Below are positions 35,186 through 43,623 of a stretch of 64,000 bases of DNA, piece after piece; position 1 is the first letter of the stretch, and each line of letters begins with the position of its first letter. The notes under the pieces were generated by a model, which was not told where the DNA came from, ran no database searches, and worked only from the letters and a program-made list of their open reading frames with translations. The DNA is taken from positions 2,912,001 through 2,976,000 of the forward strand of contig OY781964.1 in NCBI GenBank assembly GCA_963677485.1. Reading direction: 5' to 3'. Origin of the DNA: Armatimonadota bacterium (lineage in GTDB: Bacteria; Armatimonadota; HRBIN16). A program made the position numbers and the translations under genes.

Positions 35186-35957
35186 CTTTCGGTCTCCTTG
35201 GGTTGAGTGTTGTTCTGAGCTTAGGTTCCGCGGGTGGGGTGGGTATTCCTGCGTATAGCCACGGAGGTTGGTGAGGTCATCCACAGATTACGCAGATTGC
35301 GCAGATGGCGGATTGATGGGGATCATTTCACGCGAAGAAGCGAAGACGCGAAGACGCGAAGGTGGGGACCGCGCTACATTCGTCCCTTCATCTAGCGGAG
35401 CTTGAAATAACAGTCGAAGAAAGGGGGCGTGACGGCCACCTCCCAGTGGGCTATGTCCGGGGCGGTCTATCGGTAAAACAGCGGATTCAGAAGGCTCAAG
35501 ACCGCGCCGGTCTGTTTCCCTGGCAGCTGTCGATTAGCACAAAGGGGATGTATATAAATCCACAGATTACGCGGATTACGCAGATGGCGCGTTTTTGGGT
35601 GCGGTCTAGCGGAGTGACAAAACCGTGGTTCAGGCAAGAAGCCGATGCAGCACGTCAACCCCGCGGCATGAATGCCACGGCTAATTGAACGAAAAGCCGG
35701 CTTGAAGCCGGCTAGGGAGGTACTTCCTTCCGGGCGTTTTTAGTGCAGGAGGCACGTCACCAAGGCAATCACCTTCTGGCCCAGGTTCGATGTCTCCACC
35801 TATTGGCCGGTCCCTAGAGATGGCCTCAAACGCCGTAAACGCAGCCTTGCTGCCGAACGCGGCCAATGACTGGTCTCGCGTGATCAAACAGCGGATGAAC
35901 GATGGCAAGTTAACTTATCAACTCATCACAACAGTCCTTGATGTGTGCCATTTGAAT

Positions 35958-35986
35958 TTGCATTAAGCTTTCCTTTACGTTATGCT
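35958..35986 (+). promoter_or_regulatory. Candidate sigma70 promoter of the island operon
   Basis: TTGCAT-17 nt-TATGCT upstream of ATG 36024. Confidence 0.45.
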
Positions 35987-36023
35987 ATATACTATTCATA
36001 TCCAAACCCTGCAGGTCAGTGAC

Positions 36024-37112
36024 ATGAGAAGAAAAATCATCGACATTTTGAAAGACACAATGGGTGGGCAAATTATACCGTGTAAGCCAATCAGTCTTGA
36101 TACTGATTGGAATATGGAAGTACAAGGCAGTAATGAGCGAGGTATTACCCAGGTATTTGAAGATAATGACAATATTAAGGCAAACCCTAAGAACCCTATT
36201 CAACTAGACCTCTCTAAATTATCAAGCTTCCAAAACACTTCATTTCGATATTTTCTAGATGGATCTAGAAAAACGTATCGTCTTGCTGATGTTAATTTCG
36301 AGGGGAATTACTATCCGCTTGTCGGTGGACAAATATGTGTTTCTGTAATAGAACGACTTGATGACGGCAGTTATAAACCTTGTCGCGACTATTGTTGCCG
36401 GAAGAAGCTGCTAGTCTTTCCGCATACCACAGACATCCATGACGTAAAGGTATGGCAAAAGAGCCTTTCTGACGAAAATGTGTCATTTACGGTTTTGCGA
36501 TGCACCAAACCTGTTGGTGATCAAAGACAGGATATCGTAGATAGTGCAATATCGAAAATCCATTCAGAAATGCATCAACTTGAGATCGATGCTGTATCGA
36601 ATATGACTAGAGATAATAAGTTATCTCAATTCAAGAAACTAGTGGTAGACGGTCCTTTGGAATTTACTAAAGGATTAGATAAGTTTCAGTTTCAGTTCGT
36701 TATCGGTCTTTCAAAGACATTTACAGCAAATAGCCGCATCGGACGGTCGGATGTTGGCAATATCACGGTAAATCTTGGTGAAGGTCATAGAACAGCCGTA
36801 TTCAAGGTTGATCACCCATCTGGTAAGATAGGATGCTGGTTCCTTAGAATACGTGACAAGAAGCATACTCAGATGCCACTACAGGGCGTAGTTAAAGTTG
36901 AGTGCTTTGCTGTGCAACCTGAAGATGAGGAAAATGGTATTAACTCAGGATATGTGGATACTATCTCCTACTCTTTACTACGAGAAAGAAACGTAACTCC
37001 ATATAAATCGGATGATAGATGGGCAAGTCATATATACCCCATCTATGTTGCAGAAAAATACGCAAAACTACTTTTTGAGAGCGACTTAGTGTTCCGTGCA
37101 GCATTTGCCTAG
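36024..37112 (+). CDS. NurA-like nuclease (RNase H-like fold)
   Basis: FRYFLDGSR, LVVDGPL, IGLSKT, CWFLRIR, C-terminal HIYPIYVAEKYAK; directly upstream of a HerA ATPase. Confidence 0.7.
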   Translation: MRRKIIDILKDTMGGQIIPCKPISLDTDWNMEVQGSNERGITQVFEDNDNIKANPKNPIQLDLSKLSSFQNTSFRYFLDGSRKTYRLADVNFEGNYYPLVGGQICVSVIERLDDGSYKPCRDYCCRKKLLVFPHTTDIHDVKVWQKSLSDENVSFTVLRCTKPVGDQRQDIVDSAISKIHSEMHQLEIDAVSNMTRDNKLSQFKKLVVDGPLEFTKGLDKFQFQFVIGLSKTFTANSRIGRSDVGNITVNLGEGHRTAVFKVDHPSGKIGCWFLRIRDKKHTQMPLQGVVKVECFAVQPEDEENGINSGYVDTISYSLLRERNVTPYKSDDRWASHIYPIYVAEKYAKLLFESDLVFRAAFA

Positions 37113-37115
37113 GAG

Positions 37116-38795
37116 ATGGATATGGAAACAATTGGAAAAATCAGTGCAACCGAACGCAATCCGACAACATGTAACGATATATCATTCTGGCTAAAACCAG
37201 GTGTGATGATCAGCCCTTTTGACATTGTTAAGGTACAGCATATGGGGAGAGCAGGTGGTACGAGTAATAGCTATGCCATCATTACGAGCCTGTCGCATAG
37301 TACAGACAGTCCCGCGCATCTTTCTAACTTCGTTTCTTCCGATTTTGGTGATGTGGATGTTATGCCCTTAAACCGACGGTTGGGAATAACCGTTGCTGAA
37401 GCCAATGTTCTATACAATGATGATGACGTTGAATTGCCAATAGAGGACGGACAACCTGTCGAGTGGGCTGACGAAGAGGGCATCCGCGAAGCATTAGGCT
37501 TGACACATATGGAACAGCCCATACCAGCCGGGTACATGTCATGTTCAGGCAGCGGAATTGATGTAAGGGTGGATGTTGATGGGCATTTCCTTCTAGGACC
37601 AGAAGGAGCCCATTTGAACATAAGTGGCATGTCCGGGCTGGCAACTAAGACATCGTATGCTATGTTTCTTTTACAATCGATCCAACAAACTACCGATGAT
37701 ACGGCCATTGTGTTGTTCAATGTGAAGGGGAGTGACCTTCTACACATTGACAAAACAAACGAAAATCTTACCGACTATGATGAGAAAAAGTGGAAGACAT
37801 GTGGGCTCAATCCATGTCCGTTTAAAAACGTAACTTACTATTTGCCATATGGCGATAACCCGAATTCTTATACACAGTCGAAAATGGATTCTAACCATTT
37901 ATCTGAGTGCGTTCAACAAAAAAGTGCTTTCAACTATATAGTTGACCCGACTAATGGACTGCAATCATTATCGATGTTATTTCACGACATAGAAGATCCT
38001 AATGCTACATTCGATAGTATCATTGCAGAATTACAGAATAATCAAAACGGGACCTTCAGTAGCTGGGACGATATATACAGCTATATAAATCAAAAGACTA
38101 GTAAAGGGTCAGGTAGTAGTGAAGCAGGTATACATATAGCTTCGTGGCGTCGGTTTCGGCGTTTAGTGACAACCCGAACATCCAACAGCATATTCACCAA
38201 TAAGCTCCAGAGTTATTCGGAGAAACGAAGGCAATTACCTATCGACGAAATAATCAATCATATACAACCGAATACTGTAACTGTGATAGATATAGAACCT
38301 CTGCCTGACTATTTACAGGCTGTAGTTGTCGGTACCATATTAAAGAAAATATACGATGCAAAAACGTGTAATACTGAGGATTATGCTGAAGATGAAACAC
38401 CTGCAAAGTTAGCTGGTGTGAAGAAAGTGGTTATCTTCGCTGACGAACTTAATAAATATGCACCGCAGCAAGGTGGTAATACGAAAACACTAACGCGAGT
38501 ACTACTTGATGTTGCTGAAAGAGGACGGTCTCTTGGGGTTGTGTTATTTGGTGCTGAACAATTCCGAAGCGGTGTTCACGAACGTGTGATTGGTAACTGT
38601 GGAACCCACGTATTTGGACGGACAAGCAGTGTAGAACTCAATAAATGCGCAGATTATAAGCATATGCCAGATGCATATAGGAATTCACTCTTACGGTTAA
38701 CTAAAGGTACATTGTTGCTACAACATGCGGTATTTAAGACGGGCGTAATTCGTATTCACTTCCCTAAACCTGCATATTATCAACCGAAAAACTAA
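37116..38795 (+). CDS. HerA-like ATPase/translocase (HAS barrel + FtsK-HerA domain)
   Basis: N-terminal HAS-barrel-like region, variant Walker A HLNISGMSGLATKTS, FNVKG, Walker B IFADELNKYAP, ERGRSLGVVLFGAEQ. Confidence 0.88.
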   Translation: MDMETIGKISATERNPTTCNDISFWLKPGVMISPFDIVKVQHMGRAGGTSNSYAIITSLSHSTDSPAHLSNFVSSDFGDVDVMPLNRRLGITVAEANVLYNDDDVELPIEDGQPVEWADEEGIREALGLTHMEQPIPAGYMSCSGSGIDVRVDVDGHFLLGPEGAHLNISGMSGLATKTSYAMFLLQSIQQTTDDTAIVLFNVKGSDLLHIDKTNENLTDYDEKKWKTCGLNPCPFKNVTYYLPYGDNPNSYTQSKMDSNHLSECVQQKSAFNYIVDPTNGLQSLSMLFHDIEDPNATFDSIIAELQNNQNGTFSSWDDIYSYINQKTSKGSGSSEAGIHIASWRRFRRLVTTRTSNSIFTNKLQSYSEKRRQLPIDEIINHIQPNTVTVIDIEPLPDYLQAVVVGTILKKIYDAKTCNTEDYAEDETPAKLAGVKKVVIFADELNKYAPQQGGNTKTLTRVLLDVAERGRSLGVVLFGAEQFRSGVHERVIGNCGTHVFGRTSSVELNKCADYKHMPDAYRNSLLRLTKGTLLLQHAVFKTGVIRIHFPKPAYYQPKN

Positions 38796-39278
38796 GGACA
38801 CGAAATTGGACAAACACCTCAATGTTGGAATCTATATCATTGAAATACTTACCCTGGGTATGTATCCTGATGAGCTAGCTGTAATCCGCGAGTACATACA
38901 AAATTCAACGGACTCGATAACTACTGCTATCGACCAAGGCATCCTTGGTGACAGCGAAGGCCGCGTAACTATCCATATGGATGATACGAAAAGATCAATA
39001 ACCATATCAGATAATGGTACGGGTATAAATCCAGAACTTGCCGTAGATATACTGACTTCTATAGGTGACTCAAATAAAGATGGGGAGAGCACTGCCGGAT
39101 TTAGAGGAATTGGACGGCTAGCGGGTATTGCCTATTGTGACCAGCTATCATTTAAGACCTCAAATCGTGGAAGCAATAAATATATCACGGTTCATTTTGA
39201 CTGTAAGACAATCCGGCATCTTATCAAGAACCATCGTATTACTAAGTCACACATTGATGATATGGTGAATTGTATTAG

Positions 39279-40930
39279 TATCTTACCAACCATATTTTGA
39301 ACACGGTGTATAGAATATTCTGATATTACGCACCACACAAAGCGTTAGGCACAACGATCTGGCGAATAGCAAGTGCTGCCATGATGATACGCTTGCCAAG
39401 TGCAGTGAGGTAGTATTTGTAGCGTTTACCGCATTTTTTAACGAGCCGGAATACTCGGCATCGCTTGATGAAGTATGATATCTGAGAGCTGGACATCTGC
39501 GGTAAGGCTTTTTGAAGCATACGGTTTGTGATCCCGCTGATGCATCCCTCTCCGCGAGCAAGTGCAATGAGACATTCCAAATCCTTCTTGAGGAAAAGGT
39601 TGAATCCTCGATACGAGCGATGATCACGGGTGGTCGAGGTCGCGATTTTGATGATCTGATGTTCACCATCGCTGTTGTCATCAAGGGCGGAAAGAAAGTC
39701 AAGATATCTGTTGTTTGCAGATAATAACAGTTCCCTCAATGGAGGAAGGCTGTAGATGGTCTTTTGCATAGGGGCGTATTTAATCTCAGTCGTCCCATCA
39801 TGATGTTCTACCTCACGGTAGTGTTTAAATTCAGAGACGTCATTCACAGTCGTCTCGATACGCAAGATTATCCCTTGCTTGTCATACATTTTGATAGAAG
39901 CCCATCCCATGTAGTGTTTGATGCGCGTGCCTTGTATGCGGCGATCGAACTTGTAGTCAGTGCCGATCTCAGCGAGTGTTCGCCCATCAAGTTTCTTACC
40001 AAGAAACATCGCGATAGACTCTGGCGTTACCGTATGTATCGCTGTTTTGACTAGATTATCGTAGATGGCTTTGAGGTCTTCGGCGCGTTTGAACACGATG
40101 TCTGTAGCATATTCCACCTGCATTAGCGACCAATGATATGAATTGTCAGCAAGCCGTATCACGGGGCAATACATTCTGGCAAATGCATCCAGCGCATGGT
40201 GCAGCTTATCAGCAGGAAAAGCGTCTGCCAGCCTCTGAGCACAGCTAAAGTCGTCGATTTTTACAAAGGCGTTGTCCAGTGGAGTGAAAACTACTCCCTC
40301 GGATTGAAGGCAATGCGCGAGATAATTGTGTCCATTACAATAGAATTGCAGACGGAAGGGCACCCAGGTCGGAACTCGTAGATAGCACAGTCCAAACTCT
40401 GCATCGATGAAATAGAAGTAGTAATGAAGACACTTGGTCTCCTTGATATTCAGCCGGGTTTTGTGGGTAATCTTGTCGTGCCACGGGGTGTATGCAGGAC
40501 ATTTTTCCAACACTGAGAATATGTGGACGAGACCGGGGTGACACCCTCGACTACTAATGATCTCTTTGATGCGGTCTTCTTTTCGAAATGAAGAGGCACG
40601 GCGTATATACTCAATTTCAATGCTGTTGGTAACGGCAAGGCGTTCCGCATTGGCTTTGATCTCATCTCGTAGAGGTTCGGCAAATTCCTTAGGAAAGTCA
40701 AATAGCCTGATGTTGCGTTGATGAAGATAGATGCCCATTCCGTCGCTATGACACCAGCCTGGGATTGTACCGGTGATAACTATGCGGTCGAAGCATGAAT
40801 ATACCCCAGCTATCTGCTTTGCATAGCGTTCTTGAAGTGATGTCATTCTGGGCAACCTCACGAAAGGGTGTTTGAATGTATATTACGTGGCGAATGCAAT
40901 CATTCCTTTTTTGGTTGCGGCTAAGCCGCC
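39279..40930 (-). mobile_element. 1652-bp insertion element flanked by TTAG direct repeats, without terminal inverted repeats
   Basis: TTAG at 39275-39278 and 40931-40934; splits the GHKL ORF; single ORF on the opposite strand; hairpin GCGGC-TAA-GCCGC at 40917-40929. Confidence 0.88.
39326..40861 (-). CDS. Putative transposase with Rep_trans-like nickase motifs and a C-terminal winged HTH
   Basis: Fills the element; QVEYATD...HYMGWASIKMYDK...LRIE; C-terminal GITNRMLQ...QISYFIKR...YKYYLTALGK wHTH; no DDE or HUH motif recognised. Confidence 0.7.
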   Translation of the reverse strand: MRLPRMTSLQERYAKQIAGVYSCFDRIVITGTIPGWCHSDGMGIYLHQRNIRLFDFPKEFAEPLRDEIKANAERLAVTNSIEIEYIRRASSFRKEDRIKEIISSRGCHPGLVHIFSVLEKCPAYTPWHDKITHKTRLNIKETKCLHYYFYFIDAEFGLCYLRVPTWVPFRLQFYCNGHNYLAHCLQSEGVVFTPLDNAFVKIDDFSCAQRLADAFPADKLHHALDAFARMYCPVIRLADNSYHWSLMQVEYATDIVFKRAEDLKAIYDNLVKTAIHTVTPESIAMFLGKKLDGRTLAEIGTDYKFDRRIQGTRIKHYMGWASIKMYDKQGIILRIETTVNDVSEFKHYREVEHHDGTTEIKYAPMQKTIYSLPPLRELLLSANNRYLDFLSALDDNSDGEHQIIKIATSTTRDHRSYRGFNLFLKKDLECLIALARGEGCISGITNRMLQKALPQMSSSQISYFIKRCRVFRLVKKCGKRYKYYLTALGKRIIMAALAIRQIVVPNALCGA

Positions 40931-41997
40931 TTAGGGTTGATGAAGGGAAAGAAGATTCTAATAACCACTATTTTGATGTGGTAATGACTGGTGTTGATAA
41001 TGAAGGCTTTTTCAATCTAGACAGCCTTATGAACTATATCGGAATTGTCGGTCCCGTACCTATGTCGGAGAAATTCGTATATTCCCAAAATTTGCATAGC
41101 GAGTTATTCAACGCATATCATATCAACGAATTCCAAATTGTTCTGAATGGAAATAGCTTTCAACGACAGATATATCGTGAATTCCGGACCGTATATGGGA
41201 TGAAAAGAGGTAAGGCACAAGGCTCCATATACGATATAGATGGTGTACTAGTAAACGTGGTAAGCATTGGTGACCATAGTAAGGTGGCCTATTGGCTTAG
41301 CGAATCCGATTTACGTGGTCAAATTTGTGATCAATATGCCGGACTACGCCTTAGGCACCACAATATCGCCATAGGTGATGTTGACACTTTAGAGACATTA
41401 TGGAAACAAATAATGTTAACTAATCCTTCCGATTCTAGATTTCTCAAGTACTTCATTGGTGATATACACATCATTAGCAATAACGTTGTTCCAAATGCTA
41501 GAAGAGATATGTTTGAAGATAATCAATGTTGGCGGGAGATAGTCGAAATAGCGATTAAACCGCTATTTGAGGACATAACTCGAAAAGTCAGGACTGCATC
41601 AAAAGAGCATGAAGACCCTGAAAAAAAAATAGAGAAGGAAGTGCGTGCGTTAATTGGGCAGGGAAGCGGGTTTTCGTCGCATAGTGCGGTGTTACCTGAC
41701 GACAAGAGGGATTATCTTAAACAAGTTGAGAAAGCAAAAGCAAAAGCAAAAGCTGTTCAAGATGAGAGAGAATTTCCAAACCCACGTATACAGATTGTGG
41801 TTGATGACCTAGACAAAGTTGCATCAACTGTTGCTGAAATAAAGGATCCCTACATCGGGCTAGATCGTAAGCTTCGTAAGGTTGTAGACAGAATTCTTAA
41901 GGCCCTGGGTGGTGTTTTGGATAGTGATAATTACGAACTGGCAAAAGGTGTTATACTTGACGAGTTGACGAACCCTAATGCAAAGGTTGATTTATAA

Positions 41998-43371
41998 TTG
42001 CCGAATATCCTCCTAGTCGAACCTAGTTATAAAACTAAGTTCCCGCCGATCGGTTTACTTCGATTATCTTCATATCATAAAGACAATGGAGATTGTGTTA
42101 GTTTTACTAGAGGCTGCTTACCAGCATATAGAGACCTGTATTGGGACCGTATTTACGTTTCCTCCTTGTTTACATATGAACTGCCGAGAACTGTAAAGAC
42201 AGTACAGTATTACCAACATGCAGTATCCAATCCCGATACCGACATAGTAGTTGGTGGCATCGCGGCAACTCTCATGCCTGACTACATTAAAGACCGGTGT
42301 AGGTGCCGCGTAGTAGTCGGCCCACTCAATCGTCAAGGTCTGATCGACCAACACATTCCCGACATATCGAACTACCGAATAGATTATAGAATCGCAGACG
42401 ATAAACAGTGGAATTATCGTCCTAACGACTGCTATTATTTACGTGCTACCACAGGTTGCATCAGGAAATGCTCGTTCTGTGCTGTCCCTGTAATCGAACC
42501 ATACTTTGGTTTATCCCGTCCGATCAAAGACCAGATTGACGAAGTAAATAACGAATTTGGTAATAAGAAGGATGCGGTATTCATGGACAACAATATACTG
42601 GCAGTCAATGAATTGCCAGATATCATAAGTCAGCTAGTCGACGCCGGATTTAGTACGAAAGCGACATATAATGGTTCACTACGGTCAGTAGACTTCAACC
42701 AAGGATTAGACGCCCGTCTTGTTACCCCACGCATAGCATCATTACTAGGCAAAATATGCTTGAGACCAGCCCGTTTTGCGTATGATAACGAATCTGTGAC
42801 AGATAAATATATCGATGCTATCAGCATGTGTGTAGACCAAGGTATAACCAACTATACGAACTATGTTATGTTCAACTTTCAGGATGATATATATTCCCTA
42901 TACAGACGGCTTGAGCGAAACATCATACTTTCTGCATCAAAAGGTATACGGGTTACCGGGTTTCCAATGAAATATGCTCCCATATATGATGTTGAACGGC
43001 ACTATATAGATGCGAAATGGCATTGGAAATATATCAGAGGTATTCAATGTATTCTAAACGCCACACATGGGATGGTTTCGCCCAATCCATCATTCTTCTA
43101 TCGGGCCTTTGGAAATACAGAAAATGCATTTGAAGAGATCGTATGCATGCCAGAAGGTTACATCATGAGCCGCGTGAAACGTACTGATGACGGTGCCATA
43201 GATGATTGGTTACAGTGTTTCCGCAAGCTATCGCGTGATGACAAAAATTTATATCTACATGCTTTGTCTGAGCTGCATGATGTTAAGGGTGATAGAAGCG
43301 TAATGCTGGATTACCCCCAGTTTGGTGAGCTATGGGTTCATTATGGAACGGATACAAACGTCACAATATAG
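41998..43371 (+). CDS. Radical SAM protein with an N-terminal B12-binding-like domain
   Basis: ILLVEP...PPIGL, VVGGIAATL, CIRKCSFC (CxxxCxxC), MDNNIL, DFNQGLDARL; TTG start abuts the upstream stop. Confidence 0.88.
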   Translation: MPNILLVEPSYKTKFPPIGLLRLSSYHKDNGDCVSFTRGCLPAYRDLYWDRIYVSSLFTYELPRTVKTVQYYQHAVSNPDTDIVVGGIAATLMPDYIKDRCRCRVVVGPLNRQGLIDQHIPDISNYRIDYRIADDKQWNYRPNDCYYLRATTGCIRKCSFCAVPVIEPYFGLSRPIKDQIDEVNNEFGNKKDAVFMDNNILAVNELPDIISQLVDAGFSTKATYNGSLRSVDFNQGLDARLVTPRIASLLGKICLRPARFAYDNESVTDKYIDAISMCVDQGITNYTNYVMFNFQDDIYSLYRRLERNIILSASKGIRVTGFPMKYAPIYDVERHYIDAKWHWKYIRGIQCILNATHGMVSPNPSFFYRAFGNTENAFEEIVCMPEGYIMSRVKRTDDGAIDDWLQCFRKLSRDDKNLYLHALSELHDVKGDRSVMLDYPQFGELWVHYGTDTNVTI

Positions 43372-43623
43372 TGAAAATCCACGCCACACAACGTGGATTC
43401 AGGTTGCGGTAGCTTTCGTTTTAGCGATTGATATATTCAAAAGATACGGGTGACTACAAGAGGCACAGTATTACCCTCCCGTCATCCAATTACTCCGCGG
43501 TTCGGGAGAATCGGCGCAGGCATACCCCCCGTCCGCTTCAGCGGACCGGTATTGATCAGCGATGGGTGACGAGGCCCACTTTAGTGGGTTGATGGAACCC
43601 GTCGCTTCCTGCCCTTCCCCCCC

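Follow-up and report, generated by a model that had tools for sequence, protein, structure and literature searches.

A NurA-HerA-GHKL-radical SAM operon from an Armatimonadota genome as a candidate modular DNA-targeting conflict system

Hexamers of the ATPase HerA translocate DNA and feed dimers of the nuclease NurA. Radical S-adenosylmethionine (rSAM) enzymes rely on SAM and a 4Fe-4S cluster to initiate radical reactions, and prokaryotic viperins are rSAM enzymes that act as defence effectors. Sir2-HerA and DUF4297-HerA are described as anti-phage defence systems in the accessible portions of three publications (PMC11291478, PMC11472057, PMC11514289). GHKL/GHL ATPases are presented in the accessible text of PMC2292703 as ATP-gated dimeric clamps, which link the recognition of DNA to the action of nucleases and helicases. 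Ophion is an anti-phage system composed of rSAM, PHP and PRTase components, and its rSAM protein is essential according to the available part of the preprint (bioRxiv 10.1101/2025.09.30.679545). Here, an operon is described in which a NurA-family nuclease, a HerA ATPase, a GHKL ATPase and an rSAM enzyme are encoded side by side. It is located in a stretch of 64,000 nucleotides (nt) from an Armatimonadota bacterium (GenBank assembly GCA_963677485.1, contig OY781964.1, positions 2,912,001 to 2,976,000), hereafter the window, and all coordinates are positions in this window.

The operon is interpreted as a horizontally acquired, four-component, restriction-like conflict system directed against the DNA of phages or plasmids, with HerA-NurA as the effector. 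A probability of roughly 55% is assigned to this reading. The identities of the genes, their strict co-occurrence, modularity, mobility and disruption are results of the analysis, whereas defence, a chemistry on DNA and the roles of the individual proteins are inferred.

A recurrent four-gene operon

The original prediction, which was made from the DNA letters, described four genes on one strand with gaps of 3, 10 and 0 nt. This arrangement was reproduced, with the GHKL gene present in two pieces. The features of the locus are listed below (aa, amino acids; ORF, open reading frame; IS, insertion sequence).

35982 to 37112, plus strand: NurA-family nuclease gene, longest ORF of 376 aa, assigned by profile match and predicted fold.
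37116 to 38795, plus strand: bacterial-type HerA ATPase/translocase gene, 559 aa, assigned by profile match to 7f6d_B.
38806 to 39275, plus strand: 5' piece of the GHKL ATPase gene with the Bergerat ATP-binding fold, assigned by HATPase_c_3; the ORF continues into the IS up to a stop at 39300.
39276 to 40935, minus strand: IS within the GHKL gene, delimited as the part common to all 22 genomic copies.
40931 to 41997, plus strand: 3' piece of the GHKL ATPase gene with the middle and C-terminal regions, assigned by alignment to intact homologues; the ORF spans 40876 to 41997.
41998 to 43371, plus strand: rSAM enzyme gene, 457 aa, encoding a B12-binding-like Rossmann domain at the N-terminus and a helical domain at the C-terminus, assigned by the CxxxCxxC motif and the fold.
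35253 to 43619, limits approximate, strand not applicable: strain-specific island of low guanine-plus-cytosine (GC) content carrying the operon, delimited by the drop in GC and the ends of homology to the same-genus genome G001.

That these genes belong together is strongly borne out by the recurrence of their order in unrelated taxa, which was found in two sets of loci. For the first, one genome per species was scanned for the rSAM gene, and the best 80 of 490 confirmed loci were searched with the window proteins by tblastn. The second set was seeded with HerA, independently of rSAM, and comprises the best 80 of 580 confirmed stretches in metagenome contigs; its counts refer to contigs with room for the respective partner (at least 1100 nt for NurA, 1600 nt for GHKL, and 5000 nt for rSAM). 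In this HerA-seeded set, NurA is encoded upstream of HerA in 66 of 69 contigs, with no NurA match in the other three (L112, L143 and L162). The GHKL gene follows downstream in 70 of 71 contigs (L151 being the exception), and the rSAM gene does so in 47 of 47. The colinear four-gene order also occurs in 10 of the 80 rSAM-seeded loci. The metagenome-assembled genomes concerned are labelled, by record title or tool taxonomy, as Bacillota, Chloroflexota, Planctomycetota, Armatimonadota, Thermodesulfobacteriota, and Hydrogenedentota, and one is unlabelled. Exceptions in the rSAM-seeded set are a locus labelled Verrucomicrobiota with a permuted order (L068) and a locus labelled Methylomirabilota, which has rSAM, NurA and HerA and no GHKL gene (L027). 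The four genes are an obligate and widespread unit, not a chance neighbourhood.

As predicted, no mre11 or rad50 gene lies between the four genes. An archaeal-type Mre11-Rad50-HerA-NurA operon is likewise absent from the island, whose other ORFs are that of the IS and two small ones without matches.

The NurA protein returned no match in single-sequence scans of Pfam, PADLOC and NCBIfam. A profile built from 12 NurA sequences has a sole match in the PDB, namely the NurA chain 7f6d_H, with an E-value of 3.3e-4 over 49 residues. The AlphaFold2 model has a predicted local distance difference test score (pLDDT) of 76.6 and a predicted template modelling (TM) score of 0.81. In Foldseek, its top match is 7f6d_G, the NurA of Deinococcus radiodurans, with an E-value of 3.0e-11 and TM scores of 0.52 and 0.58. 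This is followed by 1zup (TM1739, 3.8e-11), and the third match is far weaker with 5.9e-3. Model and matches together identify the RNase H-like NurA fold, with a sequence identity to 7f6d of 16% in the structural alignment. The residues D93, E201, D223, K245 and H350 are invariant (12 of 12 aligned sequences for D93, E201, D223 and H350). D93, E201, D223 and H350 may constitute the active site, going by the D-E-D-H pattern of NurA. Alignment with homologues suggests that translation starts at the ATG at 36024, corresponding to Met15 of the longest ORF. At 50% identity, proteins of this NurA type fall into 845 representative clusters with E ≤0.001, of which 173 reach E ≤1e-30.

The HerA profile matches 7f6d_B with an E-value of 1.1e-53 in two stretches (profile positions 6 to 246 and 385 to 546), which cover the N-terminal and the ATPase parts. 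Lysine 178 and threonine 179 of the P-loop as well as D443 and E444 of Walker B are invariant in 13 of 13 sequences. Furthermore, the window HerA family and the HerA of 7f6d have in common an unusual P-loop, GISG(L/V)ATKTS (GxSGLAxKTS). HerA models match weakly (1.8e-6 in PADLOC, 1.6e-5 in NCBIfam), and so does the PADLOC model mad8. The NCBIfam model HerA_antiphage_2 gives an E-value of 1.5e-4, the cut-off of this model being 850 bits. A longer HerA paralogue was observed in 12 of 13 genomes searched of a sister genus (g2, within G003 to G017), in open frames of about 670 to 710 aa. It is about 35% identical to the window HerA in the N-terminal part and about 43 to 45% in the C-terminal part. 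A housekeeping role is possible for this longer form, which would set it apart from the HerA of the island.

The domain assignments of the original prediction (NurA, HerA, GHKL, rSAM) stand, except for the MORC label given to the GHKL protein. Its 5' piece matches HATPase_c_3 with an E-value of 3.6e-12, above the 25-bit cut-off, and NF010683 ("HSP90 family protein") with 3.3e-12. In the PDB, the GHKL profile finds only N-domains of HtpG, Hsp90 and TRAP1, the best being HtpG with 4.8e-11. MutL models reach only 0.018 to 0.08. As the HtpG/Hsp90 models far outscore the MutL models, the protein is called Hsp90-like and the MORC label was rejected. The motifs ExxxN, DNGxG and GFRGIGR align with those of intact homologues and are nearly invariant in 21 aligned rows. 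When aligned to 19 intact homologues of about 450 to 540 aa, the two pieces abut, with only a couple of junction residues missing, and in tblastn both match one gene in other loci. The 3' piece corresponds in full to the second part of intact homologues of about 510 to 530 aa. Beyond the ATPase fold, the family has two further motifs, GEIH and PNARRDxFED, which are nearly invariant and are located in the 3' piece (40936 to 41997). A metal-binding or catalytic site could be built from their histidine, asparagine, aspartate and glutamate residues. One structurally similar cluster in the ESM Atlas is often fused to an MTaX1 domain (48% of its members).

The insertion in the GHKL gene noted in the original prediction is real. 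It measures 1.66 kb and belongs to an IS with 22 copies at 99 to 100% identity in the 5.22-Mb genome, 20 of the 22 being at least 99.9% identical. Its ORF (39326 to 40861, minus strand) encodes 511 aa from a GTG or 506 aa from an ATG and has no match in Pfam, NCBIfam, PADLOC or among PDB sequences. In the ESM Atlas, it falls only into clusters named "hypothetical protein", most commonly from Chloroflexota, Acidobacteriota and Pseudomonadota. No terminal inverted repeats are obvious by eye. TTAG is present at each junction of the window copy, and copies differ in the two bases that precede the common left end. The IS may represent an unclassified transposase family.

The junctions of the IS are present in contigs of three sequencing runs from two studies (X1, X3 and X5). 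In a run from a third study (X6, an anaerobic digester metagenome), a contig of 1177 nt joins position 39274 to 40931, with an ambiguity of 3 nt. It is about 97% identical to the window, with differences at 13 of 415 nt and 10 of 762 nt in the two flanks. The 1656 nt absent from it are a multiple of three. Since this contig bridges the insertion site, an uninterrupted GHKL allele exists in nature. Removal of 1662 nt (39274 to 40935) was considered for restoring the reading frame and dropped, as the empty site in X6 lacks 1656 nt and has two extra codons at the junction. The disruption is recent, as seen from the near-identical copies and the uninterrupted allele elsewhere. In the window, the function of the GHKL protein is very probably lost. 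The system as a whole is probably inactive in this genome because the IS splits the GHKL gene; the NurA, HerA and rSAM genes are intact and keep their catalytic motifs.

In the rSAM protein, the cysteines of the CxxxCxxC motif (C154-x3-C158-x2-C161) are invariant in all 20 aligned sequences. Pfam scores are below the gathering thresholds, both for Radical_SAM (3.4e-4; 21.3 versus 29.5 bits) and for B12-binding (2.4e-3; 18.1 versus 32.1 bits). The best E-values of the rSAM profile against PDB sequences are only 0.065 to 0.088, and NCBIfam scores are far below their cut-offs. Phrog_9298, named "radical SAM domain protein", is matched with 2.2e-37. The AlphaFold2 model has a pLDDT of 86.7. Its best Foldseek match is MgmA (3.6e-11), followed by AprD4, MtaB, CysS, TokK, MiaB and RimO, with TM scores of about 0.45 to 0.54. 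The 14 matches listed (ranks 1 to 14, E ≤1.8e-5) are all rSAM enzymes, save one integrative model. Among these fold neighbours are the cobalamin users MgmA, TokK and CysS; AprD4 and MiaB are not known to be cobalamin enzymes. Only two further cysteines, C103 and C351, are invariant, so that an auxiliary cluster of the MiaB type is not evident. An assignment as a MiaB-type methylthiotransferase was therefore rejected as unsupported, there being no conserved three-cysteine auxiliary motif. Homologues of the rSAM protein form more than 5000 clusters, and source databases annotate homologues as "cobalamin-binding domain-containing protein". Complex prediction for the rSAM and GHKL proteins of one colinear locus (L010) gave scores of 0.71, 0.00 and 0.00 in three runs, which allows no verdict either way.

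Partner modules and mobility

The rSAM gene is not restricted to the NurA-HerA context. ORFs around it were clustered for 79 loci with an rSAM ORF and for the window (80 in total), and the cluster representatives were scanned. The following types of partner module were found.

Type A: NurA-HerA, including the window; 12 loci, 11 with an adjacent GHKL gene.
Type B: two ParB_N-like proteins, a 135-aa protein, and an SNF2 helicase (ZorD/DpdE-like, 3.7e-46); 25 loci, 5 with a GHKL gene.
Type C: PbeA (6.6e-207), PbeC (4.1e-164; DndD family, 2e-50), a DndE-sized protein of 148 aa, and a protein of about 1000 aa with sigma70-r4/alpha-CTD-like segments; 12 loci, 2 with a GHKL gene.
Type D: DrmA (2.6e-161), DrmB (5.6e-62), a NERD-SF1 helicase, and a UvrD-like helicase, together with a longer rSAM protein (about 680 aa); 8 loci, 7 with a GHKL gene.
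Type E: DndB-like proteins and proteins with a metallo-beta-lactamase fold; 6 loci, 2 with a GHKL gene.
Other partners or none: 16 loci, 9 with a GHKL gene.

The rSAM family sits at the end of these different operons. On a FastTree phylogeny of 156 rSAM sequences, the partner label changes 42 times, compared with a minimum of 9 and a mean of 87.2 for shuffled labels; none of 200 shuffles was as low. The window rSAM belongs to a well-supported set of 30 rows, in which rows of types A, B and C mix with unassigned ones. As the labels are mixed on the tree, partners have been exchanged often. The rSAM gene, with or without GHKL, is a portable cassette common to at least four other partner modules and to phages. 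The NurA-HerA system is thus one member of a larger modular family. Four loci (L020, L029, L052 and L078) carry GHKL and rSAM beside a protein of about 300 aa (cluster c19), which weakly matches the PP_RS20740 family (NF047698, 3.1e-8), and are devoid of large translocase modules. Such loci may represent a minimal form with three genes.

According to the accessible portion of PMC10853773, phosphorothioation or methylases normally accompany modules of the Pbe and DISARM types. Among the 25 of 118 families listed for 103 neighbours of rSAM in loci other than type B, DNA methylases account for one family with one protein, and no methylase recurs there. The rSAM protein is therefore the only recurrent candidate modifier seen.

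The operon is horizontally acquired, mobile and patchily distributed. GC content is 0.39 to 0.48 across positions 36000 to 43499 and 0.52 to 0.68 in the flanks, in agreement with the AT-rich island originally proposed. Homology to the same-genus genome G001 breaks off at about 35252 on the left and picks up at about 43620 on the right. A full-length HerA of the window type, with 43% identity, is present in one of 40 relatives (G010) and in neither of the two same-genus genomes searched. A scan of neighbours included 103 same-strand, unclustered proteins of 180 to 900 aa, encoded at most six genes from rSAM in loci other than type B (six near-duplicate rows of locus L061 were dropped from 109). 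Phage integrase is the commonest Pfam family among them, with 5 of 103.

Copies on viral contigs and on a plasmid extend this picture. Viral contigs were scanned for rSAM, and from the best 80 of 506 confirmed stretches, 77 entered the tree with a neighbourhood label. Eight of these are full NurA-HerA-GHKL-rSAM loci, five are of the ParB/SNF2 type, one is of the DrmA/B type, and 63 are solo. Solo genes have phage-like neighbourhoods, and those listed mostly encode about 290 to 340 aa. Two short viral copies match phrog_9298 with 8e-92 and 2e-94, and a copy of 423 aa does so with 1.2e-40. Genes that recur next to viral rSAM genes, among them some of the solo copies, encode, by their cluster representatives, a ParB-like nuclease, large subunits of terminase, a PAPS-reductase-like protein, and phrog_2045. 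The rSAM gene of Clostridium phage phiCT453B is located between recombination genes and HNH/terminase genes. The short solo phage family (phrog_9298; L204 to L248 and others, NC_029004.1, 9456 to 10331) shares about 26 to 36% identity with the window rSAM.

Two further mobile loci were observed. The conjugative plasmid pNL1 of Novosphingobium aromaticivorans (NC_009426.1, 114946 to 122990) encodes, in this order, a PIN-like protein, a GHKL protein, a DGQHR (DndB-like) protein, the rSAM protein, and a second GHKL protein. Another DGQHR gene is present on the opposite strand, and the annotation of the record is generic only. In Marinitoga camini virus 1 (KP836355.1, 37383 to 41209), a cultured temperate virus, the rSAM gene is convergent with genes annotated by the depositors as HerA and a NurA-type exonuclease. 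The set adjoins a resolvase, a placement typical of prophage-borne defence, and a GHKL gene was not found by tblastn.

Alternatively, the genes may act for the mobile element that carries them, by processing or hypermodifying its DNA for replication or for evasion of restriction, and not for the host. The 506 confirmed viral stretches, the position of the rSAM gene in phiCT453B, the full systems on viral contigs, and the pNL1 variant would all suit such a role. However, no phage structural or conjugation genes were seen within 35253 to 43619, and a processive nuclease motor would be an odd tool for the self-protection of an element. Carriage on mobile DNA does not itself separate the two readings, as prophage- and plasmid-borne defence systems are common. 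Service to the element is considered very improbable.

Mobility also bears on the idea of a repair or maintenance operon, in which the rSAM enzyme would process a lesion in the manner of spore photoproduct lyase, the GHKL protein would be a MutL-like matchmaker, and HerA-NurA would resect ends. The nearest solved relatives of NurA and HerA form the D. radiodurans pair, rSAM DNA repair enzymes exist, and few known defence genes lie beside type-A loci. In addition, GHKL ATPases include MutL (accessible text of PMC2292703). These points are met by the low-GC island, the presence in one of 40 relatives and absence from both same-genus genomes searched, the copies on viral contigs, a temperate virus and a conjugative plasmid, and the integrases as commonest neighbours. 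Likewise, the rSAM protein is common to the defence-type PbeA/C, DrmA/B and SNF2/ParB-like modules, and this strain has its GHKL gene interrupted by an IS. A repair function is thus judged decidedly unlikely.

Several features surround the operon. As originally stated, the left flank encodes glycosidases, which are GH1 and GH101-like; the right flank has an aldehyde-dehydrogenase-family ORF, at the place of the proposed proA. A simple empty site in G001 was ruled out, with the two flanks located about 10.8 kb apart on opposite strands there. The candidate promoter at 35958 to 35986 was not upheld: about 7 of 12 sigma-70 consensus positions agree by eye, and the site is absent from the list of a promoter scan. 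The region contains 25 promoter-like sites, no excess over the 19.6 ± 4.3 expected from shuffles. Short dispersed repeats occur at the island borders (35440 to 35520, 35650 to 35725, and 43525 to 43610), with 116, 4 and 31 short matches in the same genome, respectively. Dozens of matches to parts of them are present in G001. They look like elements of the repetitive extragenic palindromic (REP) or miniature inverted-repeat transposable element (MITE) type and may mark a recombination-prone site.

Proposed function

In the proposed restriction-like system, the hexameric translocase HerA and the nuclease NurA would form an ATP-driven machine that degrades DNA, an activity established for the family. 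The cassette of rSAM and Hsp90-like GHKL protein would provide the means of discrimination. In the most likely version, a covalent mark would be placed on the DNA of the host by the rSAM enzyme. A dimer of the GHKL protein would serve as an ATP-gated clamp, coupling the inspection of DNA to the nuclease motor, and HerA-NurA would destroy DNA lacking the mark. In other loci, the same cassette is combined with PbeA/PbeC-like, DrmA/DrmB-like, ParB-like plus SNF2, and DndB/DGQHR-type modules. The invariant part of the family would be the rSAM protein, often accompanied by GHKL. Its variable part would always be a DNA translocase or nuclease module driven by nucleoside triphosphates.

A restriction-like model is the simplest because Pbe and DISARM modules normally require a DNA-modifying partner, no methylase recurs among the families listed, and phages carry solo rSAM genes just as they carry orphan methylases. 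A more specific proposal can be put forward tentatively, and it is doubtful in its full form. According to this proposal, rSAM and GHKL install a previously unknown, rSAM-dependent DNA mark, which acts as a "self" label for interchangeable modules (NurA-HerA, PbeA/C-like, DrmA/B-like, ParB-like plus SNF2, and DGQHR/PIN-type). Phages would have captured the short form (phrog_9298) in order to forge the mark. If true, this would be a new self/non-self epigenetic chemistry beside methylation, phosphorothioation and 7-deazaguanine.

The chemistry of the rSAM enzyme could also be of another kind. Within a defence system, it may produce a soluble antiviral nucleotide analogue or signal, as viperins do, or damage the DNA of the invader by radicals, with HerA-NurA clearing DNA and the GHKL protein sensing infection. 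The rSAM protein of Ophion is a proven defence effector (accessible part of bioRxiv 10.1101/2025.09.30.679545), the fold of the window enzyme leaves several substrate classes, and strict co-occurrence of four genes fits any division of labour. However, the enzyme is unlike viperin in architecture: it carries a B12-like domain at the N-terminus, and its fold is best matched by MgmA, AprD4 and MiaB. In Pbe-like and DISARM-like operons, it stands in for the modification partner, with no recurrent methylase among the 25 listed families. Moreover, the solo phage copies are hard to explain for a suicide enzyme or a producer of an antiviral metabolite and easy to explain for a protective mark. A soluble product or radical damage is accordingly regarded as unlikely.

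Some observations weigh against the restriction-like reading. The rSAM fold is equally near to enzymes whose substrates are proteins (MgmA), small molecules (AprD4, TokK, CysS) or RNA (MiaB, MtaB). Cobalamin binding by the predicted B12-like domain is no more than a possibility, with a Pfam score below threshold (18.1 versus 32.1 bits). Work on the HerA-NurA pair of D. radiodurans has concerned repair or recombination. The expectation that the loci lie near known defence genes held only in small part: two of ten large neighbours of type-A loci have weak PADLOC matches (LeoA-like and primase-like), and the flanks are otherwise not visibly rich in such genes. Finally, the IS disrupts the GHKL gene and not the nuclease genes, which may be counted here as well, yet is neutral to restriction-modification logic.

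If the restriction-like reading is correct, the locus represents a widespread multi-gene immune system. Bacterial HerA-NurA would gain a defined role outside repair, and an Hsp90-like ATPase would join the GHKL families of defence. The rSAM protein is a candidate for a new DNA-marking activity across several restriction-type modules and phages, with the prospect of a new DNA modification and of new tools.

Comparison with known systems

The original prediction knew of no named system of this composition and expected no full match to a catalogued one, and both points hold. PADLOC v2.0.0 gave no full match; NurA and rSAM have no family at E ≤0.1, and HerA, mad8 and TmtA models match weakly. A full-text literature search found no paper describing the gene set or coupling this rSAM protein with NurA, HerA or a GHKL ATPase, the supplementary tables of PMC10853773 and 10.1101/2025.09.15.676423 aside. 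In named public records, the proteins are called only "radical SAM protein", "ATP-binding protein" or "hypothetical protein". The operon looks like an undescribed DNA-targeting immune system.

The HerA-NurA pair of D. radiodurans (PDB 7F6D) comprises the nearest solved relatives of both window proteins, and the two HerA proteins have their P-loop in common. In the window operon, the NurA gene is located directly upstream of herA. Unlike the D. radiodurans pair, the window-type pair is followed by GHKL and rSAM genes and occurs on mobile, patchy islands, and its NurA is only 16% identical.

Sir2-HerA and DUF4297-HerA, as described in the available portions of the papers cited above, resemble the window operon in pairing a HerA-family ATPase with a degradative effector from the neighbouring gene. 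In contrast, the window effector is NurA, two further genes are obligatory, and anti-phage HerA models match weakly. No Sir2 or DUF4297 match was found by Pfam in any of the six ORFs.

Prokaryotic MORC/paraMORC proteins and Tiamat share with the window a Bergerat-fold ATPase associated with helicases and nucleases in restriction-like operons (accessible parts of PMC2292703 and bioRxiv 10.64898/2026.09.30.754977). TmtA models match the window GHKL protein weakly (8.9e-5 in PADLOC). Unlike these proteins, the window GHKL protein is nearest to HtpG/Hsp90, has no fused nuclease, possesses its own GEIH and PNARRDxFED motifs, and is partnered by an rSAM enzyme rather than a methylase. The accessible text of PMC2292703 contains neither "radical SAM" nor "HerA". 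That of the Tiamat preprint has no "HerA" and a single "radical SAM", which is in the reference list (a viperin paper).

With DISARM (DrmA/DrmB) and with CxC-ABC/PbeABCD-Dnd systems, the family has in common a modular operon organisation, and sister rSAM loci carry DrmA/DrmB-like or PbeA/PbeC-like genes. The window operon itself does not encode those proteins. In the sister loci, rSAM with or without GHKL takes the place where, going by the accessible literature, a methylase or DndA/C would be expected. The available portion of PMC10853773, a reappraisal of Dnd and Pbe systems, refers to radical SAM in the context of DndC alone, and that of the YprA/ARMADA preprint (10.1101/2025.09.15.676423) mentions no rSAM partner.

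MgmA, TokK, CysS, AprD4, MiaB, RimO and MtaB resemble the window rSAM protein in having an N-terminal Rossmann-like domain, an rSAM barrel, a C-terminal domain, and the CxxxCxxC motif. Compared with these B12-domain rSAM enzymes and methylthiotransferases, the window protein has negligible sequence similarity and a DNA-directed genomic context. Ophion and viperins differ from the window system in the partners and in the architecture of the rSAM protein. As a restriction-like multi-gene defence based on HerA and an effector, the operon would be of a kind already known; what looks new is the combination with a GHKL ATPase and an rSAM enzyme.

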